Positions 14,308-64,000 of a stretch of 64,000 nt of DNA are shown here, in pieces (the first letter of the stretch is position 1; every line of letters begins with the position of its first letter). A model generated the notes under the pieces. That model had not been told where the DNA came from, ran no database searches, and was given only the letters and a program-made list of their open reading frames with translations. Made by a program: the position numbers and the translations under genes. This DNA comes from a virus (Duplodnaviria > Caudoviricetes), in IMG/VR virus record IMGVR_UViG_3300033120_000845, positions 68,414-132,413 of that record. One strand, 5' to 3'.

Positions 14308-17300
14308 ATGAGTTGCGGAATAACATACGATAAAAACGGAAAAATAGTAGAAGTCTTAAATGAGCAAGGAAAACCTTCAAAGCTATATAAAGATGCTCTA
14401 AAAGCCACAGGAAGTGAACAGCAAGCTAAAAGACTTTTTCTGTTGACAAAAACCCCTATGTTTAAAGAAGATGTAATAGATGTTGATAATAAAAGACGTG
14501 CTATTCAGATTAAGAAACAAATTTTAGGGGAAAAAGGTGCGCAAAATCTCGACAGAGTAGAAGAAGCTTCTTTTAGAATGGACAATTTACGAGTTGCTAA
14601 AGATATGGAAAAAGCAGGTAAATCTGCTAAAGAAATTAAATTTGCAACTAATTGGGAAAAAGGGGCAGACTCCAAATGGAGATACGAAGCAGAAGACTTA
14701 CAACTAAAACTTGATGAAGTTGAAGTAGATAGAGAGTATAAATTTATAGACATTGTAAAAGAACAAGGGATTGTGAAAGCATATCCTAAATTAAAAGATG
14801 TTAAAATAAAGTTTGAAGATGGAAAAGGATTACACGGAGCACGAATTACAGGAGATGGCTCACTTATTACTATATTTACCCGAAGAGATTTTGTATTCGG
14901 AGGTGAAGAACACGGGATTGAGTCCCTTCTTGGCATTGAAACACCCAACGGAGGAGGAAGGACATATAGATTATCACGAGTGGATATACGAAGTTTGGAG
15001 CACGAAACAACTCACATTGTACAACAACAGGAAGGTTTCAGTAAAGGAGGCAGTCCAAATGATATTAGAGAAGAAGCCTTTAGATTATCAAAAATTAGTG
15101 GAGAAAGTAGACCACAGGTTATTGTAGATGCTTTGGTTAAGACTCTTAAGAATGAAAAAAATGAGAGGAATAGAAGTATCTTGACGGCGACATTGAGTCA
15201 TTTTGTTAGTAACGATATTTTATTAACAGATGAATATAAGAAAATTGCAGGAGAAGTAGAAGCGCGTTCAGTTGAATCAAGAATAGGATTAACTCCTGAA
15301 CAAAGAAGACAATCGCTGTTATCTGAAGAATTAGGTATTTCTCCAGAAGACCAAATATTTTTAGATGGCGCTTTCGATATGCAAAATTTAATTAACCCCT
15401 TAATTAATCGTTTAGAACAAACAGGATTAGCGGATAATGTATATCAGATGTCTTCTAAGCAAATAGAAGAAAAACTTAGAGATATTGGTATTGATGAAGA
15501 CATAGCTAAACAAATATCTGTGTGGCATGGCTCTCCACACTCCTTTAACCGTTTTACAACTGAAAGAATAGGCACAGGAGAAGGTGCTCAAGCTTTTGGA
15601 TGGGGATTGTATTTTACTGATTTGGAGAGTATTGCTAAGAATTACGCAGAAGTGTTATCAGATTCTTCGCTTGATAATTATATAAAAGAGTTTGATGTTA
15701 AGTTAAATACCAAATATGAAAATTTTCACGATATAGCAAATAATTTATCAGAAGGTAAGTTTTTAAACGAGTCTTGGAGAAAAGAGGCGGATAAGTTAAT
15801 TAAAGGAGAGATTAAATTTTACAAAGATGAATATAAAGATGTAGGTATTTCTGATAAAGAAGCGCAAGAAAATTTAAAATTACTTAATGAGTTAATATTA
15901 GATATAAATAATACGCCTAATAAAAACCTTTATAAAGTATCCCTACACAAAGGTAAAACACCTTCTGAATACACTTGGTTAGAGTGGGATAAACCTATAA
16001 ACAAAGACGAAGCAAAAAAGATAGCAGAAGGCTTTGTAAAAAATAACCCAACTAAGTATGTTGATACAGATGCTCAATATCAAGAATCTTTTAGAGAAGT
16101 TGAAAATGAGGATGGTGATATAGATTTAGTAACTGATATCATAAACTCTAAAGAATCTTTAATCAGGTTTTTTACAGGAATGAATGGGAAAGATATTTAT
16201 GATTTTATAAATGATGGATTTTCTAACGAAATATTATCTCAAGAAGAGGAAATATACCAATCAGTTTATGGAAAAGAGAATAACAATCAAAAAGACACAT
16301 CATTATTTTTACTTGAGAACGGCATTGACGGAATAAAGTACCCAACGGAAAGTATATCTCGTGGAGCGACTTCGGATACAGCAAGAGGGTTCAACTACGT
16401 TGTTTTTGATGAAAATGTTATAACAATAGAAGAACAAATACAATTTCAAAAATTAGGAATTGAGTTAACACCAAATGGGTTTACTTATAAAGGCGATGTA
16501 TATTTAAACAAGGATACTTTAACACAAGACACTCCTATTCACGAGTTTCAACATCTTTTCAGCGATTTCCTAAAGAAAAACAATATAGAAATCTACAATA
16601 GAGGTATTGAACTTGTAAAACAAGAGTTAAGTAAATCAAACAGCGAAATAAAAGACATTATAGGATTTGTAAAAGCAAATCAACCAAAATTAAAAGGTGA
16701 AGCACTTTATGAAGAAATTTTAGCGGAACTTGTTGGGAGACGAGGGGTAGAACTTTTAAATTCCAAAAAGAAATCAGGAATCATTAACTGGATTAAGGAA
16801 GCTTGGTCTGAAATAGCTAAAATGTTAGGGTTGAATAATTATTCAAGTGAACAAGTTGCTAATATGACTTTAAAAGAGTTTGCTGATGCTTCTGCTGTAC
16901 AATTATTGAAAGGAGAAAACATTTCAGAAGAATATCCTTTGAAACAAGTTTATGACTATTACCAAGCTAAAAACTACGAAGGTGAAATTTTAAATGAGTT
17001 TGAAGTTGAAGAGGCTAAAGATGTGATGCTTGTAAATAATATTGAGAATTCTAATAAACTGTTTGATAAATTAACAAAGGCTTTTATTGTTGATGGCGTA
17101 TTTAACCCCACAATAAGCTCTTTAAAAACATTTTATTCTGATTTAGAAGTTAGGAGAGCATTTGAAAGTTTAGGCAGCTTAAAAAGCTTCTATTACAGAT
17201 TTAAGAATACAACGCCGTTTGTAAACAATCAAATTGAGTCTGATAAAAGATTTCTATATAGACGTTCTTTTGAAACAAATAGTTTAGGTAAGTTTTCTTA

Positions 17301-18417
17301 TTACAACCCTTTAATTGAACAAGAGAAGTTTAGATTAGAGTTTGGCGGGATAAAAGATGAAATGAGATTTGAAGATAAAAGTCTGTTTGAACAGTATTCT
17401 AAATTAAAAAGGGTTAAAGTAGTGGACAAAAACAATCAGGAAGTTCCACAAAACAAAACTAAAGAATTTTTAGAAATCACTTTAAAAGATGATAGTGACG
17501 GCTCATTTAGAAGAATGATTCGCACACTTTTAAATGCCCCAACAGAATTATGGAATGACGCGGACGTAAGAAAGTTAAAACAGAAGATATACCAAACAGC
17601 AATTAAGCACTCCTTAGATTTAAAATCATTTGAAGATTTAAATGAAAAAGATTCAAGACAATTGATGACAGCTTTGGTAGATGCTTTTGAAACTTCCGAA
17701 TTAGATAATTTTGCAGAGGTTTATGATGAAATTTTTGCTATAAATAAAAAAGCAAGGGAGTTTGTAACCTCTGAAACAAGACCTGTAGTAAAACTGTATG
17801 ATAAAACAAACGATTATAATTTATTTCAACAGTTTGGGTATCTTCCATTAGGTGATAGAGTTTATTTAAAAACAGATGCTTTGGAAAAATCACTACAGGA
17901 AGTAAAAGATATTTTAGGAGAACCTGATGCAAAACTTGTTAAGAGTATTAATTTAGAAGGTGCTGAGAATGTAGATATTGAGACAATGCAAAAAATGGCA
18001 TTATATTCAAAACGATTTAATACGCTTTTAGAAGATAATACAAAACAAGATGAAAAAGTAAAAGGAGAATTCTTTAGCAATTTGTATGGAGAGTATTTAA
18101 AAAATCCAAATAGTCCAGAATATGAAAATTTTATTTTTACAGAAAAAGGATTAGATTACTACATTAACAAAAAAGATAATATAGATTATAGTAAACCTCC
18201 AATTTACACAGGAAATTATTTTAAAGTATCAGAAACAGAAATTCAGGCAGATGAAATACACCCTGAAATAAGAACACAAGACGGAAGAATATACTATCCT
18301 ACATCTAATAATGTATACTCTATAAACAAAGAAGATTATTTAAATAAATATGAACCTCTTGTAAACAATCAACCAATTGTTATAAGAAAAGGTAAAAATG
18401 ATTTGGATTGTAAATAA
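14308..18417 (+). CDS. Polyvalent protein: LPD23-like region, zincin metallopeptidase, ADP-ribosyltransferase-like domain, second HExxH
   Basis: 1369 aa; ATNWEKGADSKWRYE; LEHETTHIVQQQEGFSKGG...AGEVEAR; VWHGSPHSF..F....IGTGEGAQAFGWGLYFTD...GIDGIKY...NYVVFD; TPIHEFQH. Confidence 0.7.
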   Translation: MSCGITYDKNGKIVEVLNEQGKPSKLYKDALKATGSEQQAKRLFLLTKTPMFKEDVIDVDNKRRAIQIKKQILGEKGAQNLDRVEEASFRMDNLRVAKDMEKAGKSAKEIKFATNWEKGADSKWRYEAEDLQLKLDEVEVDREYKFIDIVKEQGIVKAYPKLKDVKIKFEDGKGLHGARITGDGSLITIFTRRDFVFGGEEHGIESLLGIETPNGGGRTYRLSRVDIRSLEHETTHIVQQQEGFSKGGSPNDIREEAFRLSKISGESRPQVIVDALVKTLKNEKNERNRSILTATLSHFVSNDILLTDEYKKIAGEVEARSVESRIGLTPEQRRQSLLSEELGISPEDQIFLDGAFDMQNLINPLINRLEQTGLADNVYQMSSKQIEEKLRDIGIDEDIAKQISVWHGSPHSFNRFTTERIGTGEGAQAFGWGLYFTDLESIAKNYAEVLSDSSLDNYIKEFDVKLNTKYENFHDIANNLSEGKFLNESWRKEADKLIKGEIKFYKDEYKDVGISDKEAQENLKLLNELILDINNTPNKNLYKVSLHKGKTPSEYTWLEWDKPINKDEAKKIAEGFVKNNPTKYVDTDAQYQESFREVENEDGDIDLVTDIINSKESLIRFFTGMNGKDIYDFINDGFSNEILSQEEEIYQSVYGKENNNQKDTSLFLLENGIDGIKYPTESISRGATSDTARGFNYVVFDENVITIEEQIQFQKLGIELTPNGFTYKGDVYLNKDTLTQDTPIHEFQHLFSDFLKKNNIEIYNRGIELVKQELSKSNSEIKDIIGFVKANQPKLKGEALYEEILAELVGRRGVELLNSKKKSGIINWIKEAWSEIAKMLGLNNYSSEQVANMTLKEFADASAVQLLKGENISEEYPLKQVYDYYQAKNYEGEILNEFEVEEAKDVMLVNNIENSNKLFDKLTKAFIVDGVFNPTISSLKTFYSDLEVRRAFESLGSLKSFYYRFKNTTPFVNNQIESDKRFLYRRSFETNSLGKFSYYNPLIEQEKFRLEFGGIKDEMRFEDKSLFEQYSKLKRVKVVDKNNQEVPQNKTKEFLEITLKDDSDGSFRRMIRTLLNAPTELWNDADVRKLKQKIYQTAIKHSLDLKSFEDLNEKDSRQLMTALVDAFETSELDNFAEVYDEIFAINKKAREFVTSETRPVVKLYDKTNDYNLFQQFGYLPLGDRVYLKTDALEKSLQEVKDILGEPDAKLVKSINLEGAENVDIETMQKMALYSKRFNTLLEDNTKQDEKVKGEFFSNLYGEYLKNPNSPEYENFIFTEKGLDYYINKKDNIDYSKPPIYTGNYFKVSETEIQADEIHPEIRTQDGRIYYPTSNNVYSINKEDYLNKYEPLVNNQPIVIRKGKNDLDCK

Positions 18418-30957: not shown

Positions 30958-31110
30958 AATTCCTTAATTTCTATAATACGAAGATAGTTATTTAATTTAA
31001 TATTTGCAACTTTTTCTACTAAATTTTCTTCAGTTTTTTTATCGCGGCAAAAAAGTTTAATTTTACTTTTATATTCTACGGGTTGAAGAAGTGTCAGTAA
31101 TTTTTCTGTT

Positions 31111-32028: not shown

Positions 32029-32352
32029 CTATTTTTTCTTTTTCCAAAATTTAAGCTTTTTTGACGATAGGTAAATATCTAATAATTCTTCACAAGTGGT
32101 TTTAAAATCCATCTTATTATCTAAACAGAATTTCTCTAATTCCTTAACTTCTTTAGTCTGTTTTTTATTTTTTATCGCGCGAAAAAGTGATAAAACGTAT
32201 TCAGTATTATCCCAATAAGCCTCCTTTTCAACCTCTTTAAAATGTAAAGCAGGCTCTTTACACCATTCACCTCTAACTCTAATATCACTCAATTGAATAG
32301 AGCCATTACTATTTTCAATTGCTCTATAAACTGTTACATCTCTTTCCATCAC
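32029..32352 (-). CDS. Hypothetical protein
   Basis: Coupled ORF. Confidence 0.5.
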   Translation of the reverse strand: MMERDVTVYRAIENSNGSIQLSDIRVRGEWCKEPALHFKEVEKEAYWDNTEYVLSLFRAIKNKKQTKEVKELEKFCLDNKMDFKTTCEELLDIYLSSKKLKFWKKKK

Positions 32353-32747
32353 CTACTTAAAATTAAATATCCGCTAAAAATAAGACTTCCATATAAAGCC
32401 ACTTTAGTCCAAATTGTTTTATTGTTTGCTCTTTTTAAATCTTTTTCAAGATTAGTAATCTGTTTGTCTTTGTTACTTTTAATTTCTTCTTGTAATTTAT
32501 TTTCGCGCGAAAAAGTTGAAATAATAGCATCATTAACCTCATTTTTCTTCTCTAATTGACTCACAAGAATCTTATATTGTTTAACTTCTTCCAAACAATA
32601 ATCATAACTCACTAAATCTTTTATAACTAAACGTGCTGTTGTGTTAGATAAGATTACTTTTGTAGTGTCTGTCTGTGCTTTTACTTCTTTCGCGCCGAAA
32701 AACAATAAAAACAAAAATATAAATTTATTTATCATATCTTTTTTCAA
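32349..32747 (-). CDS. Membrane/exported coiled-coil protein (possible lysis accessory)
   Basis: N-terminal signal, coiled coil, C-terminal hydrophobic segment. Confidence 0.4.
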   Translation of the reverse strand: MKKDMINKFIFLFLLFFGAKEVKAQTDTTKVILSNTTARLVIKDLVSYDYCLEEVKQYKILVSQLEKKNEVNDAIISTFSRENKLQEEIKSNKDKQITNLEKDLKRANNKTIWTKVALYGSLIFSGYLILSR

Positions 32748-33056: not shown

Positions 33057-33884
33057 TTAAATTTTAATGTTTTGTAAAGGGGATTGTATTTTACTAATTG
33101 TAGAATGAGAAATATGTAAATATATAGATGTGGTTTTAACAGAACTGTGACCAAGTAAGCGTTGTATCATGTTGATATCAATTCCTGCATCACACATGTG
33201 GCTTGCTGAACAATGTCTAACCAAATGTGTATAGACTCTTTTGTCTAATCCTGCCTTTGTAGCTAATTGTTTAACAACTTGTAACACACTTCTTGAAGAA
33301 TATTGTTCTGAAAATTGCCCGCCAAAAATAAAAGACTTAGTTTTAAATTCGCGGTAATATTCCTCCATTAATTTTAGTAATGTGTCGTTCAATCCCACTT
33401 GCCTGTTTTTTCCACCCTTAGCATTTAGTATATAAATAATCATTCTACTTCTATCAATATTTTCCCACCTTAAATTAATGAGTTCTGAAACACGCAAAGA
33501 ACAAGAGTATAAAAGTGCTAAAATTAACTTATGCTTCCTATTCTCACACATATCAAACATTTTTTGAATTTCCTCTACAGAGAGAATGATTGGCAAGCTT
33601 TTATCTTTCTTTGTATAAGGTATATTTTTAAACTTTTGTTTTTGATTTAAACAAATATCATAAAATAACTTTATAGCAGAATGATAGTTTCTTTGAGTAT
33701 TAGCTTTTATGCAATTGCTTAAAAAATGTTTAATGTCTTGTTCATTGATATTCTTAGGGTGGTCTTTATTAATAGTGGATAAAAACACATCAATGCAACT
33801 ACTGTAATTTTTAATACTGTTTTCTCTATATCCTCTTCGTTTCATTTCCTGAATGAAAGTTTGTTTGTGTTCAGAAGTTTTCAT
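33057..33884 (-). CDS. Tyrosine recombinase/integrase (candidate cassette integrase)
   Basis: N-terminal SAM-like domain (RRGYRENSIKNY); intact catalytic set LRVSE, AKGGKNR, HLVRH, LGH, TTSIY; no IntI-specific insertion visible before the HxxR box. Confidence 0.9.
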   Translation of the reverse strand: MKTSEHKQTFIQEMKRRGYRENSIKNYSSCIDVFLSTINKDHPKNINEQDIKHFLSNCIKANTQRNYHSAIKLFYDICLNQKQKFKNIPYTKKDKSLPIILSVEEIQKMFDMCENRKHKLILALLYSCSLRVSELINLRWENIDRSRMIIYILNAKGGKNRQVGLNDTLLKLMEEYYREFKTKSFIFGGQFSEQYSSRSVLQVVKQLATKAGLDKRVYTHLVRHCSASHMCDAGIDINMIQRLLGHSSVKTTSIYLHISHSTISKIQSPLQNIKI

Positions 33885-33886
33885 TG

Positions 33887-33944
33887 TTAAGTATTGATTT
33901 TATTAGTGTTTTAGAGTGTGTAATACATATTTATGTTAGGCGAT
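33887..33944 (+). other. attI-like primary site of cassette array 1
   Basis: 27-bp motif TTAAGTATTGATTTTATTAGTGTTTTA (33887-33913; 26/27 identical at 62895-62921), then GTT core at 33935 with no preceding hairpin; immediately upstream of the integrase start. Confidence 0.65.
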
Positions 33945-34289
33945 ATTTGGACACAACTCGTTTAACAAATCGAAAGACTTATTAAAATTCTCAAATATTG
34001 GTTCTATATCGTTCCCTGTACTTTCTCCATTTAAGAAAAACTCGCAACTAATACTTTTTTCTTGGCACAAATATTTTATAGCCGAAACAAAGTCTGGACT
34101 ATTTGAATAAAAGTCCATTGATTTATTTAACGACAATGCTTTTTGTGCTTGTATCACCTCATTTAGTGGGTGCAACTGATGCCTACACTTATCTTCAATG
34201 GAAACTCCACAGTAAACACGAATAAAAACATCGCCTAACACAGGTTTTGTGCTATTGCTTTGCTCGGTGTTTAAATTTTGCTCAGTCAT
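33936..34289 (-). CDS. Cassette 1 hypothetical protein
   Basis: Starts inside the attC-like loop; TAA stop is the complement of the GTTA core. Confidence 0.7.
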   Translation of the reverse strand: MTEQNLNTEQSNSTKPVLGDVFIRVYCGVSIEDKCRHQLHPLNEVIQAQKALSLNKSMDFYSNSPDFVSAIKYLCQEKSISCEFFLNGESTGNDIEPIFENFNKSFDLLNELCPNIA

Positions 34290-34371
34290 AATATGTAATG
34301 TTTAGTGTTTAAATTAAAATTTGTTTTATTTTTGGTCGCAACAGACACAAAGCCTGAAAACGTTAGTGGCA
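34230..34371 (+). repeat. attC-like site 1
   Basis: ATCGCCTAAC-a-CAGGTTTTGTGCTATTGC...GCAACAGACACAAAGCCTG-aaaac-GTTAGTGGCA. Confidence 0.85.
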
Positions 34372-34374
34372 ATT

Positions 34375-35079
34375 TTAAGAAGCGTTCGTGTCAATAACAA
34401 TCGGTTCTATAAATGTACCAAGTTCATATTTTTTATTCTCTCCTTTTGGATAAGGTTTAATTTGATAATTAAGTTTTTTCATATACTCTTTTCTTTTAGT
34501 TTTACTTGTTGCAAAATAAATGTATCGGTGTTTAGCACTTCTGTATTTTCTTAAACCTTTTTGTTTTTCATTATCGTAGTGCCTTGAATGTTTTCCACCT
34601 TCAACATATTTGTCAGTTCTCGCTTTTGTCATTCCTGTATAAATCCAATTTGTAGCTTGATAAATATATCCGTTATGGTTCATTTGAGTATCAGCATAAG
34701 AAACTAAAATTAAATCTTTTGCTTTCAATTCATTTAGACACCAAGCCACAAATTTAGATAGTTGTATTTCAATTTCGCCATCAACACAAAGTCGGTTTAA
34801 TTCAAATACCTTTTCGCTATATTCTTTTCCACAAACTCCAATACATAAACTATTACTTGCAGGTTTACCAAATGTGCATACTGCTTTTAAGACATCTTTT
34901 TCATAATAACCAAAAGAAAAAGTAATACTCGGTTTTCTACCTGAATAGTGGCGAGGTAATAAAAAATCAACCGCTTGTTTATACGTTATTGAAGAAAAAC
35001 TGCCACTAACACTGCATATACGCAATGTGGGGTTTAGTGCTTCAACAATGTTTTGGTTTTCAAATAAACTTTTTTGCAT
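34375..35079 (-). CDS. Cassette 2: Mom-like (GNAT-fold) DNA adenine-modification protein
   Basis: FLLPRHYSGR, VCTFGKPAS, FELNRL, VSYADTQMNHNGYIYQATNWIYTG, KHRYIY. Confidence 0.75.
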   Translation of the reverse strand: MQKSLFENQNIVEALNPTLRICSVSGSFSSITYKQAVDFLLPRHYSGRKPSITFSFGYYEKDVLKAVCTFGKPASNSLCIGVCGKEYSEKVFELNRLCVDGEIEIQLSKFVAWCLNELKAKDLILVSYADTQMNHNGYIYQATNWIYTGMTKARTDKYVEGGKHSRHYDNEKQKGLRKYRSAKHRYIYFATSKTKRKEYMKKLNYQIKPYPKGENKKYELGTFIEPIVIDTNAS

Positions 35080-35137
35080 AATTTAAATTTTAGTTTTTAT
35101 AAGTCCCACACTGCGTATATGCTTTTACGTTAGCGGA
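35001..35137 (+). repeat. attC-like site 2
   Basis: TGCCACTAAC-act-GCATATACGCAATGTGGG...CCCACACTGCGTATATGC-ttttac-GTTAGCGGA. Confidence 0.85.
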
Positions 35138-35141
35138 GATA

Positions 35142-35780
35142 TTATTCACGTTTTGTTAAATAAGACTTTAAATGCTCACGATATTCAGGAGTTCTATTTT
35201 TCACAAGAAAATCAATAGTTTTATTCATTTCAATTTTACGATACTCATCTATTCCAATTTCTCTCATTTTTAAAATCACATCGCCTGTTACTCCAAAACA
35301 ACAATCTTCATAATCCGATTGGTTTTTATAATTGTACATTTTAGTTTTGTCTATTTCAATTTCTGAATTGACCAAGCCTTCTAAAGTTGGAAGTTTTTTA
35401 TATCTTTCTATTCTTTCTTTTTTTCTTTGTAAACCTTCAAATATTAAATCCAAGCAATGTTCTTTAGTGTATCCGTAAACGTGTTGTGAAGCCGTTGAAA
35501 AAGAACTATAAATAGAATCACTATAATTAGTTTCTTGCGGATGCCTTTCTTCTACTTTTATTTCCTCATCTAATATTAAATCAAGATATTGCTCTTTAGT
35601 GTGTTTATGGACATACTCATTTAAGTATATTTCTTTTAATTCATTTTGAACTTTTTTAGCAACATCATAATCTAAAAATTCTTTTCTTAAATTTACAAGA
35701 TAATCCTTTCTACAAATACCATCCGCTAACACAGGTTTTGTGCTATTGCTTTGTTCGGTGTTTTCTGAATGTTTGGTCAT
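35142..35780 (-). CDS. Cassette 3 hypothetical protein
   Basis: Starts in the att loop; N-terminus NTEQSNSTKPVL shared with cassette 1. Confidence 0.7.
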   Translation of the reverse strand: MTKHSENTEQSNSTKPVLADGICRKDYLVNLRKEFLDYDVAKKVQNELKEIYLNEYVHKHTKEQYLDLILDEEIKVEERHPQETNYSDSIYSSFSTASQHVYGYTKEHCLDLIFEGLQRKKERIERYKKLPTLEGLVNSEIEIDKTKMYNYKNQSDYEDCCFGVTGDVILKMREIGIDEYRKIEMNKTIDFLVKNRTPEYREHLKSYLTKRE

Positions 35781-35859
35781 AATCTGTATTTTTAGTGTTT
35801 AAATTAATGTTTTGGTCTATTTTTACGCAACAGACACAAAGCCTGATAACGTTAGCAAA
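35722..35859 (+). repeat. attC-like site 3 (near-copy of site 1)
   Basis: TCCGCTAAC-a-CAGGTTTTGTGCTATTGC...GCAACAGACACAAAGCCTG-ataac-GTTAGCAAA. Confidence 0.85.
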
Positions 35860-36304
35860 CAGTTAATTCACGGCCTGTTAAAGCGAAATAAAAGTTTTGA
35901 AGTTGATGAACATATTTTACAACATCAAAAAAAGTAGAGCCTTGAAATCTTAATCCAAAAGTTTTTAAATTATGTTTTGGCAAAAAATAATCAAATCTTG
36001 TGTCTTTTTTCAACTCGTATCTTAATGTAAACTCGTTATCAATTATTTTTTCAAATCCGAATTTCATTAACCATTCCTCATTTATTTCAATCGGTTGATA
36101 ATCTTCGTTCATTTCGTGTTTTATTCCAAAAATCCGTAAATCATCATAGTCAATTTCTGAAACTTCAAGCCATTCTTTGCGTTCATCCATTTTATCAACA
36201 ATTCTATAATTTATCAAATTACCTATTCTAAACTCCTTATCCGTAACCGATTTGCTAACATCGGTTTTGACTAATGCCTTACTTGGTTTTGTGCTTTTAC
36301 TCAT
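35852..36304 (-). CDS. Cassette 4: Bacteroidota-phage-type hypothetical protein
   Basis: EFRIGNL...QPIEINEEWLMKFGF...VHQLQNFYFALTGREL; stop within the GTTA core. Confidence 0.7.
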   Translation of the reverse strand: MSKSTKPSKALVKTDVSKSVTDKEFRIGNLINYRIVDKMDERKEWLEVSEIDYDDLRIFGIKHEMNEDYQPIEINEEWLMKFGFEKIIDNEFTLRYELKKDTRFDYFLPKHNLKTFGLRFQGSTFFDVVKYVHQLQNFYFALTGRELTVC

Positions 36305-36389
36305 TGGTTTTTAATTTAAAAATTAGTTTGTGCTTTTGTGTCTAGTCTTTAATTTACGGCACTAGACAAAGCCGAGAACCGTTATGCAC
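36251..36389 (+). repeat. attC-like site 4
   Basis: TTTGCTAAC-a-TCGGTTTTGACTAATGCC...GGCACTAGACAAAGCCGA-gaacc-GTTATGCAC. Confidence 0.85.
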
Positions 36390-36408
36390 AAGCACTACGT
36401 TATCGTTT

Positions 36409-37155
36409 TCAAATGAAATTTACGTTATAGACTAAATCCTTTTCTTCCTTGTTTATAATGTATTTTCCTGCTTCAAAATCACTTCTTACCCATTTAGCAA
36501 GAAAATCTACTTCGCCTTTTCTTTCAACTCTATAAACCATTCCTTCGGGTTTTTCATCAGGTGTAATTCCGTATGTTTTTTTGTTTAGTTCTGGTAATAT
36601 ATTTTCAACAGTTTCTGATTTTCCTCTGTGTAATAGTCTTGGAAGTTGTATTTCATATTTATTATAAAAACTATCCAAAACATCAAAACTGCTTCTTTGG
36701 TTATTTGCTGTAAAATGGTCAAAGAAAACTATCGGTTGTAATCGGGTATCAATATTATATTTAATTCCGTGTGCTTGCGCTAACCATTCTCCTGTAATTC
36801 TTTCTCCATTTTTTAACAAATCCATCCAAGTCATTATATTTTTATAAACCCAATCACTAAATAAATGATGTTGCTTGTAAGGGCTTGTATTTGCAATATA
36901 TCCACTTCTAGTAAGTGCAACTATTCTATTGTCAATTTTTCCAATTCCTACATTAGAACCGTCATATTTTTCAAAGACAAAAATTTCATCGTTTTTATCT
37001 CTAACTTTTACAGTTAAAATTCTTTCTTGTCCTTTATCTATAAAATGGTCGCCAGTTCCTAAATTACTATTTGATAAATGAGGAATTGAACCGTAATTTT
37101 TAATACCTAATGGTTTCATAAGTTCATTTATTTTTAAAATACCGTGCCAGTGCAT
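36409..37155 (-). CDS. Cassette 5: ATP-dependent RNA ligase-family protein (start may be 37119)
   Basis: Motif I EKYDGSN; GEW; FFD; PEGMVYR; AKWVR. Confidence 0.8.
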   Translation of the reverse strand: MHWHGILKINELMKPLGIKNYGSIPHLSNSNLGTGDHFIDKGQERILTVKVRDKNDEIFVFEKYDGSNVGIGKIDNRIVALTRSGYIANTSPYKQHHLFSDWVYKNIMTWMDLLKNGERITGEWLAQAHGIKYNIDTRLQPIVFFDHFTANNQRSSFDVLDSFYNKYEIQLPRLLHRGKSETVENILPELNKKTYGITPDEKPEGMVYRVERKGEVDFLAKWVRSDFEAGKYIINKEEKDLVYNVNFI

Positions 37156-37287
37156 AACAGCAATTTTGCGCTATTACCGTTTTAGGCTTTGGGTTATGTT
37201 AATTTTGTATTTGTTAATATTATTTCTTAATCAATGATTTCGGCTTTCTTATCGGTAACAGTCGCAAAGTTGCAAAACGTTATGCGC
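37150..37287 (+). repeat. attC-like site 5
   Basis: GTGCATAAC-a-GCAATTTTGCGCTATTACCG...CGGTAACAGTCGCAAAGTTGC-aaaac-GTTATGCGC. Confidence 0.85.
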
Positions 37288-38301
37288 AACCTTTCGTAAT
37301 CGTTTCCATAATACGATTTTGCGCTATATCGAAATAGTTTTTATCCATTTCTATTCCAATAAATTTACGGTTAGTGTTTACGCAAGCTACTCCAGTACTA
37401 CCTGAACCCATAGTAAAATCTAAAACAGTTTCACTTTCATTTGTATATGTTTTTATTAAGTACTCCATTAAATCTAATGGTTTTTGTGTTGGATGTACCC
37501 TTAGTTTAACCCTAAAATTAAAATTAAGTATATTGGTATTTCCAAAAGTACTGTTGTAAACTTCCTCTATTTCTTTATATTCAAATAAACCTAATGGTTC
37601 TTTTAATTTATTCCACATTTCCATAGTAGGAACTTGTCCGCATTTATTATTCCCAGTATAAATACTCCACATTCCACCTCCATTTTTAGCAACTCCAAGT
37701 AGACTATGAAAATCATCTTTACCTAAACCGTATTTTAAACAAGCTTCTTTTTTATTACTTTTGCTATTTTTGGTCTTGCATTTTTAGTATTCACATTTAT
37801 CAGCTCACATATATTTGGGTGCATTTTATATTTACCAATATTCCTGCCACCTAAAACTTGTTTTCCTTTATTTATAAACAGTAATTCTCTGTGTATTAAG
37901 TTGTTTTTTAATAAATTTGGATATATAAACTCTTGGGTTTTATGTGAACCAAATATAATTAATCTGCCACCACTTCGTAATGTTCTTGAACATTCTGTTA
38001 TTACACTATTAAAAAAAATATTAGCTTCATTAAATGTTTTATTGTCCCACGATTCATTAACCATACCAATGTAAGGTGGGTCAACAATAACAGCATCAAT
38101 ACTTCCATCAGGTATTTTCTTCATCAATTCAAGACAATTTCCGTTCCACAATTCAGGCAGCGCATAACAGCGGTTTGGAGCAATTGCCGTTTCATTTTCA
38201 AATAAACTTTCTTGCATAATATCAAATTTTGTTTTCATAATTAATTTTTCGGTACGGCAACTGCACCAAGCCGTAGGCGTTATAATAAACTTAACACACA
38301 A
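37280..38301 (-). CDS. Cassette 6: beta-class N6A/N4C DNA methyltransferase split by a -1 frameshift at 37747-37753 (true start probably near 38217-38238)
   Basis: Upstream ORF has GNCLELMK..IDAVIVDPPY; downstream ORF has HPTQKP..VLDFTMGSGSTG..FIGIE; the -1 frame is open across the junction. Confidence 0.8.
38160..38285 (+). repeat. attC-like site 6
   Basis: GCGCATAAC-ag-CGGTTTGGAGCAATTGCCGT...ACGGCAACTGCACCAAGCCG-taggc-GTTATAA. Confidence 0.85.
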
Positions 38302-38498
38302 TCTGTAATGTCATCTAAATCCTCATCGCTAATAAGAGTAATTATGTTAGTAAAGCTGTCAGAAACCATAACTTCCCTAATATCAAATTCTGCTCTACTA
38401 TTTGAATATTCTTCATAAGGATAATAATATCCTGTAATTGTTAGGGGTATTCCTCCTTTGAATACAACTTCTACTGTTTCTAAGTTTTTTGCCGCCAT
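38280..38498 (-). CDS. Hypothetical protein bordering the array
   Basis: 72 aa; stop lies in the last GTTA core. Confidence 0.55.
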   Translation of the reverse strand: MAAKNLETVEVVFKGGIPLTITGYYYPYEEYSNSRAEFDIREVMVSDSFTNIITLISDEDLDDITDCVLSLL

Positions 38499-38521: not shown

Positions 38522-38552
38522 CAAATCTACAATAAATATTTTAAACTACCTA
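38522..38552 (-). promoter_or_regulatory. Promoter-like element reading into the cassette array from its distal end
   Basis: Minus strand TAG-N20-TAGATTTG (-7 matches TAnnTTTG; -33 imperfect). Confidence 0.5.
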
Positions 38553-40306: not shown

Positions 40307-40494
40307 GTTTCTTAATTTTTTTTGTAAAGATATAAATAAAAATAATACGGTGCAAGTAAAAAGCGAAAATATTATAATAAAGTTAAAAATTAATAATAAA
40401 CTTGATTGGTTTATTGTGCAAAAACAGGTTTATTATTGCGCGAAAAAAGATTAAAAACAGAAAAAAGAGCCTTAATTAGACTCTTTTAGTGTAG

Positions 40495-41542: not shown

Positions 41543-41573
41543 CAAAGGTATGAAATTTTACTTAATTGTGCAA
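41543..41573 (-). promoter_or_regulatory. Bacteroidota-type promoter
   Basis: TTG-N20-TACCTTTG. Confidence 0.65.
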
Positions 41574-41595
41574 ACTACTTAACTTTAGTTTAACA

Positions 41596-60334: not shown

Positions 60335-60365
60335 CAAATATATGTATTTATATTTTAATGTGCAA
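60335..60365 (-). promoter_or_regulatory. Promoter of the DGR operon
   Basis: TTGCAC start; TTG-N20-TATATTTG. Confidence 0.7.
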
Positions 60366-60391
60366 ATTTTTTTATTCTTTTTTCGCGGAAT

Positions 60392-60818: not shown

Positions 60819-60849
60819 CAAATATATATCTTTATTTTTAATTGTGCAA
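60819..60849 (-). promoter_or_regulatory. Bacteroidota-type promoter
   Basis: TTGCAC start; TTG-N20-TATATTTG. Confidence 0.7.
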
Positions 60850-60962
60850 ATTATTTTTGTAATTTATAATGATTTTAGATAAGTTATTTTATTCACTTTT
60901 AAACATGACAATAAACTTCGACTTTCATCGAAGAATTTTTATTATTACCTACTATAGGGAGC

Positions 60963-62879: not shown

Positions 62880-62894
62880 ACTATTGTGGTAATT

Positions 62895-62956
62895 TTAAGT
62901 GTTGATTTTATTAGTGTTTTACCACATTGGTTGCGTCAATGAGCGAGTTAAACGAT
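62895..62956 (+). other. attI-like site of cassette array 2
   Basis: TTAAGTGTTGATTTTATTAGTGTTTTA (62895-62921), then GTTAAACGAT at 62947. Confidence 0.6.
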
Positions 62957-62967
62957 AGTTTTTCAAA

Positions 62968-63399
62968 CTATACGGATAAACCTAATTGATTAATAGCATT
63001 AGTGTTTAATTCAAACTCAAAATCGAATCCTAATAAATCCTCAACAAGTTCATTTTTGCTTATCCAAAATCTTTCTTCGCCATCACTATCTTTGTATGTA
63101 GTTTCGAACATATTTTCCCCAACTTCAAAATCTGTGAAACAATCAAAGAAAACGCTTCCTTTTGCTTCATTATAAACCCCTAATTCGGCTTTATAGTCAA
63201 ATTCAGTGGAAAAATGGATTCTTTCAGGTTCTTCCAAAATTCTTTCCGATTCATCTGTTACAGCAAACATTTTAAGTGTTATAGGCTGTTTTAAAAAATT
63301 AGCGTAATTACTAATCTTTGTAAGCATTTTTACCTCGTCATAAGGTGGATTTTCATTTAATAAATTCAAACAAAAATCTGTCATTGGAATTAGTTTCAT
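62968..63399 (-). CDS. Cassette hypothetical protein (Bacteroidota-phage type)
   Basis: MKLIPMTDF...NYANFLKQP..LKMF. Confidence 0.65.
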   Translation of the reverse strand: MKLIPMTDFCLNLLNENPPYDEVKMLTKISNYANFLKQPITLKMFAVTDESERILEEPERIHFSTEFDYKAELGVYNEAKGSVFFDCFTDFEVGENMFETTYKDSDGEERFWISKNELVEDLLGFDFEFELNTNAINQLGLSV

Positions 63400-63422
63400 A
63401 ATCTATTTGTGTTAATTAAACC

Positions 63423-63522
63423 ATCGTTTAACAAAGGTTTGGCGCAATAAAGCCAACACCTTCTGATTAATATTCTTGTTTTTCTAAGGCTTTACTTCGC
63501 CAAGCCTCTGGACGTTATAAGC
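63423..63522 (+). repeat. attC-like site 7
   Basis: ATCGTTTAAC-aa-AGGTTTGGCGCAATAAAGCC...GGCTTTACTTCGCCAAGCCT-ctggac-GTTATAAGC. Confidence 0.85.
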
Positions 63523-64000
63523 AAGCTGCTACGTTCCTGCTCCGAATGAAAGTTCCCCATTGTTCAGCCATAGCTTTTGCCACCCCACTAAAAGTTTTTG
63601 AGCTTTCCTTTTGGCTTATATTTACAAATTGGTATTTCTGTCCTCGTTTCTTCCCTCCTGTATTGCTCGGCAAATACGGCTTATAGTTGCTCTTAATATC
63701 AGTCGGCTTTAATAGTGGCAAATTTTTCAACCACAATAATGTTCGCTTACTAAATTCGTGTCCATATTCGTAGGGCTGTATCGCTTGGTCTTGTTTTGGC
63801 AATTCAACTACTTTTAATGGTGTTGGATTTTCAATAGCAATATATTCAATCGGTGCATTTAGTAGTTGTAAAAACAAGTCCTTAGCTTCCATTGCTTTTG
63901 CGTATCTGTCTTGGCACAAATTTCCTGCCGTTGGATACATCCATCTTGCTCCAGCCCTACTCATATAAGTACAAGGTGGGTGTGCAATCATCATATCATA
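63515..64000 (-). CDS. Cassette gene: C5-cytosine DNA methyltransferase-like protein (5'-partial)
   Basis: DMMIAHPPCTY, IAIENP, IQPYEYGH..SKRTLLWL, SKTFSGVAKAMAEQWG; stop within the GTTA core. Confidence 0.75.
   Translation of the reverse strand, partial: YDMMIAHPPCTYMSRAGARWMYPTAGNLCQDRYAKAMEAKDLFLQLLNAPIEYIAIENPTPLKVVELPKQDQAIQPYEYGHEFSKRTLLWLKNLPLLKPTDIKSNYKPYLPSNTGGKKRGQKYQFVNISQKESSKTFSGVAKAMAEQWGTFIRSRNVAACL

Follow-up and report, generated by a model that had tools for sequence, protein, structure and literature searches.

A probable integron-like cassette array in a Flavobacterium-type phage, with hairpin sites in front of the genes

Can a gene-capture array of the integron kind be arranged so that the recombination site precedes each gene and even contains its start codon? 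The question is raised by positions 33936-38301 of a 64,000-nt stretch of the virus record IMGVR_UViG_3300033120_000845 (Duplodnaviria; Caudoviricetes); this stretch, hereafter the window, is the final 64 kb of a single 132,413-bp phage contig. Six hairpins separate the genes of the region, which an initial annotation, made from the letters alone, had read as inverted cassettes whose sites double as start and stop of translation. We consider it likely that the region is an integron-like array in a phage of about 132 kb of the Flavobacterium type, with cassettes that put the hairpin first and often begin translation in its loop, much as in the scheme set out below.

The hairpins were located by scanning all TAAC...GTTA pairs in the window and ranking them by arm-duplex energy. 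Seven sites lie at -22 to -31 kcal/mol, and the best pairing apart from these reaches only about -12. In plus-strand coordinates, sites 1-4 occupy 34236-34365, 35007-35132, 35727-35854 and 36256-36384, and sites 5-7 occupy 37155-37282, 38165-38282 and 63429-63517, the seventh lying far from the six of the region. On the gene strand, each site begins with a 10-bp box ending in TAAC, followed by a spacer of 4-6 nt, the 5' arm and an AT-rich loop; after the 3' arm and a further one to three bases, it closes with a second 10-bp box, whose first letters are GTTA. The arms, about 19 bp long, carry fixed mismatches at three positions instead of bulged bases, and a perfect inverted pair of 9-10 bp boxes surrounds every gene body in the window. 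Imperfect hairpins, inverted AAC/GTT cores and box complementarity across the cassette, as known from integrons, are therefore all present; the attC geometry, i.e. a two-sided unpaired spacer and two extrahelical bases on one arm, is not. An Rfam search returned a single sub-threshold chance match (WsnRNA46 at hairpin 6, E = 0.019). The region comprises the following features, where ORF denotes an open reading frame:

33057..33884, minus strand: tyrosine recombinase of 275 amino acids, Xer/IntI-like, without the IntI-specific insertion (Pfam Phage_integrase and Phage_int_SAM_4)
33885..33938, minus strand: attI-like junction of about 50 nt, from the TAAC box of the last cassette (core 33935-33938) to the recombinase ATG, recognized by motif conservation
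33936..34362, minus strand: cassette 1, ORF 33936-34289 and hairpin 34236-34365; ATG in the loop, stop codon in the core TAA
34363..35129, minus strand: cassette 2, Mom-family ORF 34375-35079 and hairpin 35007-35132; ATG in the loop
35130..35851, minus strand: cassette 3, ORF 35142-35780 and hairpin 35727-35854, a twin of hairpin 1; ATG in the loop
35852..36381, minus strand: cassette 4, ORF 35852-36304 and hairpin 36256-36384; ATG in the loop, stop codon in the core TAA
36382..37279, minus strand: cassette 5, RNA-ligase ORF 36409-37155 and hairpin 37155-37282; ATG inside the 3' box
37280..38279, minus strand: cassette 6, N6/N4 DNA methyltransferase ORFs 37735-38301 and 37280-37672 and hairpin 38165-38282; stop codon in the core TAA

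Every cassette ORF lies on the minus strand, which also carries every gene of the window from about 26 kb onward, so the statement that all cargo ORFs run opposite to the GTT...AAC orientation is borne out. The same is true of the reading that cassettes 1-4 and 6 start in the hairpin loop and traverse the 3' arm and 10-bp box: ORFs 1 to 4 have their first ATGs in loops, at 34289, 35079, 35780 and 36304, and the loop of cassette 6 contains ATGs at 38217 and 38238. The shared N-termini are found as described (NTEQSNSTKPVL in ORFs 1 and 3, MQKSLFEN and MQESLFEN in ORFs 2 and 6), as are the stop codons formed by the TAA complementary to the core at 33936, 35852, 37280, 38280 and 63515.

The recombinase is short and Xer-like. 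Its best NCBIfam match is the XerA/integron-integrase family NF040815, at 206.8 bits and thus below the cut-off of 220; the scores are 166.9 against the XerD profile (cut-off 329.6) and 156.2 against XerC (335), so that none of the XerA, XerC and XerD family cut-offs is reached. The integron-integrase profile TIGR02249 matches in two pieces with 165 bits, under its cut-off of 265. The nearest solved structures are those of XerA (4a8e and 5hxy). In the alignment with IntI4 (2a3v), residues 13-175 and 196-272 of the recombinase correspond to residues 12-179 and 242-319 of the chain; where IntI4 has 62 amino acids, the phage protein has 20, about 42 residues fewer, and we therefore regard the IntI-specific insertion as absent. 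In 10 of 11 sequences, a homolog (31-86% identity) is encoded on the same strand at a distance of 270-1130 nt downstream from the last hairpin. The attI-like junction itself contains no hairpin (33885-33938). Following its TAAC is a motif conserved across 10 loci over the same range of recombinase identity (31-86%), and in 8 of these 10 loci the cassette-side box of attI is perfectly complementary to the 3' box of the last hairpin. An attI adjoining the integrase gene, as in integrons, is thus represented by a conserved junction of about 50 nt at 10 loci. Two cultured Polaribacter phages, Freya_10 and Leef_1, whose integrases are 30-35% identical, have no such arrays beside the integrase.

The polarity of the cassettes was examined in a wider set of phages. 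A pattern scan of viral contigs provided more than 118 stretches, to which two loci fetched by their recombinase and the whole genome were added; ORFs were called mechanically. A structure-based finder applied to these stretches identified 376 oriented hairpins in 115 phage sequences, in arrays of up to 12, with a length mode of 120-126 nt. Because the core sequences are symmetric, they cannot by themselves tell the orientation of a cassette. The spacer is asymmetric: in the large majority of the 376 hairpins one arm has 4-5 nt of spacer and the opposite arm 0-1 nt. Relative to this hairpin polarity, genes are sense-only in 223 cases and antisense-only in 10. An inverted repeat of 9-10 bp between boxes spans 178 of 250 gene bodies compared with about 1% of random box pairs, and its median is 4 bp both inside in-situ hairpins and in random pairs. 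Hairpins and bodies are freely combined, with more than one body in 47 of 56 multi-member hairpin clusters.

Where the mobile unit begins and ends can be read from several independent boundaries. Both arrays of the genome lack a hairpin at their downstream end (gene strand), where the last box is followed directly by a junction without hairpin. When a cassette occurs in two contexts, homology starts 0 to -2 nt from its own TAAC in five pairs and at -5 and -8 nt in two further pairs; across shared-cassette pairs, the TAAC of the own hairpin is the exact start in about half. In most pairs with a defined next hairpin, homology ends 0 to +3 nt from the next TAAC. Cultured Flavobacterium phages repeat this pattern: mumin6-1 and mumin6-3 are 99.9% identical and stand one TAAC-bounded unit of 506 bp apart, and between lillamy9-1 and lillamy9-6 one hairpin-plus-gene unit is replaced at TAAC boundaries. 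In locus coordinates, such TAAC-bounded differences between near-identical phages lie at L245 4193-4698 versus L246 and at L247 7018-7737 versus L248 7017-7476. Neither the mumin nor the lillamy phages encode a tyrosine recombinase. The extra mumin6-1 cassette retains only the 5' arm of its hairpin. Because array ends, hairpin polarity, homology limits, isolate indels and the position of recombinase and attI all agree, we take the unit to be a hairpin plus the downstream gene, with the crossover in the TAAC before the hairpin. The inverted polarity claimed in the initial annotation holds on these grounds: with the crossover written in the classical manner, between G and TTA at the right end of the site (plus strand), the genes fall on the opposite strand.

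Does the site also supply the start of translation? A clear downstream gene is present in 284 phage cassettes; the hairpin itself contains the first ATG in 131 of them, and the 3' box contains it in 12. Loop ATGs from which the path across arm and box is open occur in the frame of the gene in 126 of 271 cases (46%), compared with 67 of 542 (12%) for the other frames; after dereplication the coupling has an odds ratio of 6.2 (p = 7e-26). Broken down by frame, the values are 64% versus 12% for frame 0 and 49% versus 11% for frame 1. Homologous bodies occur under different hairpin-coded leaders, each in frame; for example, the body of cassette 3 has a homolog at locus L009 under a different hairpin and leader. 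Conversely, a single leader is found on up to 13 unrelated bodies. With a median length of 17 residues, the leaders contain many K, N, T and S residues. In Mom and methyltransferase proteins, the conserved N-terminal motifs start within a few residues of the box, where no start codon is present; in cassette 2, the Pfam Mom domain runs from residue 28, directly after the box-coded residues, and there is no in-frame ATG, GTG or TTG between box and domain. GenBank coding sequences (CDS) of the cultured phage morran9-1 also start in loops. These frame statistics and swapped leaders support the view that the hairpin often supplies the start codon and the first 17 or so amino acids; that att sites provide start signals had been proposed from this locus alone. 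The corresponding proposal for stop codons is correct only for a minority: of 188 cassettes, 30 end at the TAA of the next box. No more than two ORFs continue beyond that box; a gene that extends as far as the box thus arrives there in the frame of its TAA.

Several observations weigh against this picture. The loci were seeded by one sequence pattern, and one hairpin subfamily is over-sampled. Whole-hairpin energies of single-stranded DNA (ssDNA) only slightly beat those of shuffled sequences, with weak z-scores for all but hairpin 2, because the loops are long (80 nt); arm-duplex energy separates the hairpins better. The mumin indel has a 7-nt direct repeat at its flanks and could also have been produced by slippage. 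About half of the shared cassettes have a different upstream hairpin, and the break then falls at the 3' box. Hairpin and body can thus be separated, which implies a second crossover position, and a model with a single crossover does not explain these breakpoints. Finally, the loop start is not universal. The first ATG lies 15-60 nt downstream of the box in 137 of the 284 cassettes, and in 40 of 61 frame-1 cassettes with a loop start the junction codon, in which the spacer T is joined to the box G, reads GTG, ATG or TTG, so that translation of those 40 could begin at the box.

The last two points, together with one morran9-1 GenBank CDS called at a junction ATG, would favor an explanation in which the layout is as described and translation truly begins at the 3' box or beyond it, either at a junction NTG or at a downstream ATG, the loop ATGs being untranslated by-products. 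We regard this as unlikely. The coupling is strongest in precisely those frame-0 cassettes that have no junction start; the junction codon is CTG in 20 of the 61; and another ATG within the next 26 codons of loop-start genes is no more frequent than background (47% versus 43%). Moreover, the Mom and methyltransferase domains begin so near the box, with no start codon in between, and after a hairpin swap the new loop ATG is again in frame. Several tiny annotated CDS lie in or mostly in hairpins of morran9-1 (locus L124: 4620-4724, 6787-6888, 8320-8415 and 9715-9822); they are probably gene-calling artifacts on open arm frames.

In the initial annotation a promoter-like motif was noted at 38522-38552 (minus strand), reading in from the distal end, and was taken as the opposite of integron Pc logic. 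The reversal as such follows from the geometry, but the promoter is a weak point. Its TAnnTTTG-type box (38522-38529, 23 nt before the ATG at 38498) is an 8-mer that occurs 60 times on the minus strand of the window and is not significant alone; this -7-type box is all there is, as the two-box Bacteroidota pattern has no match at that place, and the candidate was rejected. Promoters carried by the loops were likewise considered and rejected: sense TAnnTTTG is depleted, and the two-box pattern is absent from 33-39 kb. Within the 376 hairpins TAnnTTTG, the only motif examined there, has 12 sense occurrences, a lower rate than in gene bodies, and 79 antisense ones. The antisense enrichment may be compositional, reflecting A-rich loops, or may indicate antisense promoters. 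A sigma-70 scan gave fewer matches than shuffled sequence and is uninformative for Bacteroidota. No terminator-like sites were found within the array; from this and the loops without sense TAnnTTTG it follows that read-through from upstream is likely. The two-box pattern matches on the minus strand at 41543-41574, 60335-60366 and 60819-60850, with a near-identical upstream half in the three copies, and these are candidates for a phage promoter family whose first copy lies 3 kb upstream of the array. A further motif of 22-28 nt, with a CGCGCG center between runs of T and A, occurs at 31035-31062, 32168-32195, 32496-32523 and 40429-40456; its copies partly form inverted pairs, and one of them adjoins a terminator-like site at 40463-40487.

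One could instead regard the hairpins as stem-loops acting at the RNA or regulatory level (insulators, processing sites or PeSL-like promoters) and spread by homologous or illegitimate recombination. This would agree with their occurrence in phages without any tyrosine recombinase, with the independent assortment of hairpins and bodies, and with a start codon in an open loop, which suggests a role in mRNA. As the sole explanation it is nevertheless very improbable: breakpoints fall on the 4-nt core with unrelated sequence on both sides; box complementarity of 9-10 bp across the body only makes sense for an excised circle; and the linkage of recombinase and conserved attI has been kept across 31-86% identity. 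The depletion of sense TAnnTTTG in the hairpins (12 versus 79 antisense) also argues against it, and the PeSL cassettes of T4-type phages, which have a promoter into the downstream gene in each repeat, have no counterpart here as far as this motif is concerned. The two roles are not exclusive, and a recombination site may have a regulatory function as well.

The hairpin family is not confined to phages. Its pattern matches at least 120 genome contigs, almost all from Bacteroidota and many from metagenome bins. When their hairpins are oriented by the same spacer rule as those of phages, flanking genes are antisense in 102 cases versus 14, and 73 of 83 cassettes have their gene on the antisense strand. 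Most antisense genes start at most 60 nt after the box and stop at most 45 nt before the next one, i.e. outside the hairpins. In arrays whose recombinase is placed as in the phages, the cassette genes point away from it. This gene layout is that of classical integrons, and the phage arrays are therefore its mirror image: the order of gene then attC, transcribed away from intI, is found in the genome-contig arrays and is missing from the phages.

Opposite gene orientations in the two sets, and perfect inverted repeats around every body, might suggest that the 10-bp boxes are inversion sites and the genes invertible segments switched by the recombinase. We consider this highly improbable. Each set has a nearly uniform orientation (223 versus 10 in phages, 102 versus 14 in genome contigs), and a search for flipped homologs among phage bodies and between phage and bacterial bodies yielded none, whereas shufflon- and inverton-type systems show the same segment in both orientations. 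That the phage genes follow the classical polarity after all, each belonging with its downstream hairpin and the loop ATGs with the neighboring cassette, would suit the layout of the genome contigs and the common 3'-box breakpoint of the pairs we class as type II, but is contradicted by homology boundaries and isolate indels: no phage pair has homology through a whole downstream hairpin to its 3' box, most end 0 to +3 nt from the next TAAC (three enter the hairpin by 27-88 nt), both arrays of the genome have no hairpin at the recombinase or attI end, and the indels between cultured isolates consist of a hairpin and the downstream gene.

The phage arrays with hairpin-first cassettes share much with classical integrons, among them sedentary chromosomal ones such as that of Vibrio cholerae: arrays of single-gene cassettes with imperfect hairpins and AAC/GTT cores between them, box complementarity across the cassette, a crossover inside the core, attI beside a tyrosine recombinase gene, one site type on unrelated genes, and cassettes that seem to be promoterless. 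They differ in the recombinase, which lacks the IntI-specific insertion, and in the site, which has a one-sided spacer of 4-5 nt in place of the two-sided spacer and two extrahelical bases of attC. The phage site stands before the gene, and the better-folding strand, presumably the one that is cut, is the gene-sense strand. Since the phage genes read towards the recombinase, new cassettes land farthest from the promoter, unlike in classical integrons; and in the phages, start codon and leader peptide often seem to be located within the site.

A recombination site that is folded from one DNA strand is also known from the CTX phage: XerCD acts on the hairpin of its attP, and the unpaired central region sets strand and polarity. 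By analogy, an Xer-type enzyme would act on single-strand hairpins here too; in CTX, however, the whole genome is integrated into dif by host enzymes, whereas the present system would use a phage-encoded enzyme to move single genes. An influence of recombination sites on the translation of cassette genes is not new either. A short ORF in attI1 is said to aid cassette translation, and attC stem-loops in mRNA reportedly hinder it. These sites act from outside the coding region, while the phage site seems to include the start codon and to be part of the translated sequence.

Turned integrons have been described in a Treponema group, where only the integrase gene is inverted and the order of gene then attC is kept (Cury et al. 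2016, PMC4889954). Recombinase and cassette genes are on one strand there as in our phages; here it is the gene that is turned inside its cassette, and the array lies upstream of the recombinase. Clusters of attC type have also been reported from virulent phages without integrase, with canonical attC recognized by IntI1 (Qi et al. 2023, PMC9892861); that paper mentions neither phages of Flavobacterium or Bacteroidota nor Xer-like enzymes nor gene orientation. By the CALIN criterion (at least two sites, no integrase nearby), a second array of the present genome, with six sites, and morran9-1, with 14 sites, are both such clusters. In the literature on integrons, tyrosine recombinases and Flavobacterium phages, which we covered incompletely, we found no published description of the system, and a paper on Baltic Flavobacterium phages does not mention the hairpins.

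In the scheme we propose, the mobile unit established by the comparisons extends from one TAAC core to the next and consists of an imperfect hairpin of 120-126 nt followed by one gene on the same strand, which places the recombination site at the 5' end of the gene. Cassettes would enter at the conserved attI just upstream of the short Xer-like recombinase gene, i.e. at the far end of an operon in which all genes read towards the recombinase. By analogy with known systems, the enzyme would cut the folded gene-sense single strand between TAA and C. The gene-sense strand folds better as ssDNA at 262 of 360 sites, which is indirect evidence consistent with cutting at the 5' box of that strand. 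Transcription, again by analogy, would start at phage promoters further upstream and read through the array. Judging from frame statistics and swapped leaders, about half of the phage cassettes would have their ATG in the loop, with the end of a hydrophilic leader of 14-21 residues encoded by the 3' arm and box; the loop would thereby act as a portable module for translation start, and the TAA of the next box would sometimes serve as stop.

The remaining features of the window concern the borders of the array and a second one:

38280..38498, minus strand: flanking phage ORF of 72 amino acids, with its stop codon in the TAA of the first 5' box
62949..63514, minus strand: first cassette of array 2, ORF 62968-63399 and hairpin 63429-63517; ATG 23 nt after the box
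63515..64000, minus strand: second cassette of array 2, ORF 63515-63994, stop codon in the core TAA; the cassette continues over the contig end

ORF 38280-38498 is not a cassette, because it has no hairpin upstream. The methyltransferase of cassette 6 is split, its N-terminal ORF covering Pfam positions 1-60 and its C-terminal ORF positions 146-220; a slippery A-run at 37735-37760 had been remarked upon in the initial annotation. The site at 63429-63517 is no orphan, as it begins array 2, whose first cassette is enclosed by a 10-bp inverted box at 62948-62957 and 63423-63432. Array 2 comprises at least six hairpins, five of them beyond the contig end at genome positions 748-2745, and has no adjacent recombinase. 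It crosses the contig ends, so the contig is circularly permuted. Its junction (62880-62948) has only a distal 20-nt motif in common with the attI at the recombinase. ORF 63515-63994 opens with a PPC-containing motif reminiscent of cytosine-5 methyltransferases. Two more isolated hairpins lie at genome positions 15531-15654 and 17781-17908, the second in opposite orientation.

Hairpin 1 of the window matches a site of the Flavobacterium phage morran9-1 with 92% identity over 142 nt. This match points to Flavobacterium as the host and to exchange between unrelated phages. Morran9-1 has 14 hairpin sites and no tyrosine recombinase; a PF00589 search of its whole genome gave no match.

Taken together with the genome contigs, the phage arrays may belong to one hairpin-recombinase system of Bacteroidota and their phages that is divided into two mirror-image pools: a host pool with the gene ahead of the site and transcribed away from the recombinase, and a phage pool with the site first and the gene directed at the recombinase. 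The phage hairpin would then give start and leader to any captured body, and crossovers at both boxes would recombine bodies and hairpins. We advance this wider model tentatively and rate its chances at slightly below even. If it is true, crossovers at both boxes would provide a concrete route to the building of new cassettes. The suggestion, made when the locus was first read, that start and stop signals in the att sites hint at the way new cassettes are built is a conjecture; the swapping of hairpins with a breakpoint at the 3' box agrees with it but reveals separable modules, not the genesis of cassettes.

Integrons are the textbook case of gene capture, and the origin of their cassettes and the fixed polarity of these cassettes remain questions. 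The present family amounts to a natural mirror-image experiment, in which one site family occurs in both polarities and, to judge from the sequences, is translated in one of them, and in which the exchange of hairpins and bodies is visible at defined breakpoints. Since the system is present in cultured, tractable Flavobacterium phages, some of them one cassette apart, starts, strand choice and exchange are directly testable. Phage annotation is affected as well, through N-terminal extensions common to unrelated proteins and tiny ORFs inside hairpins. Finally, the finding bears on the trade of phages in methyltransferases and other counter-defense genes.

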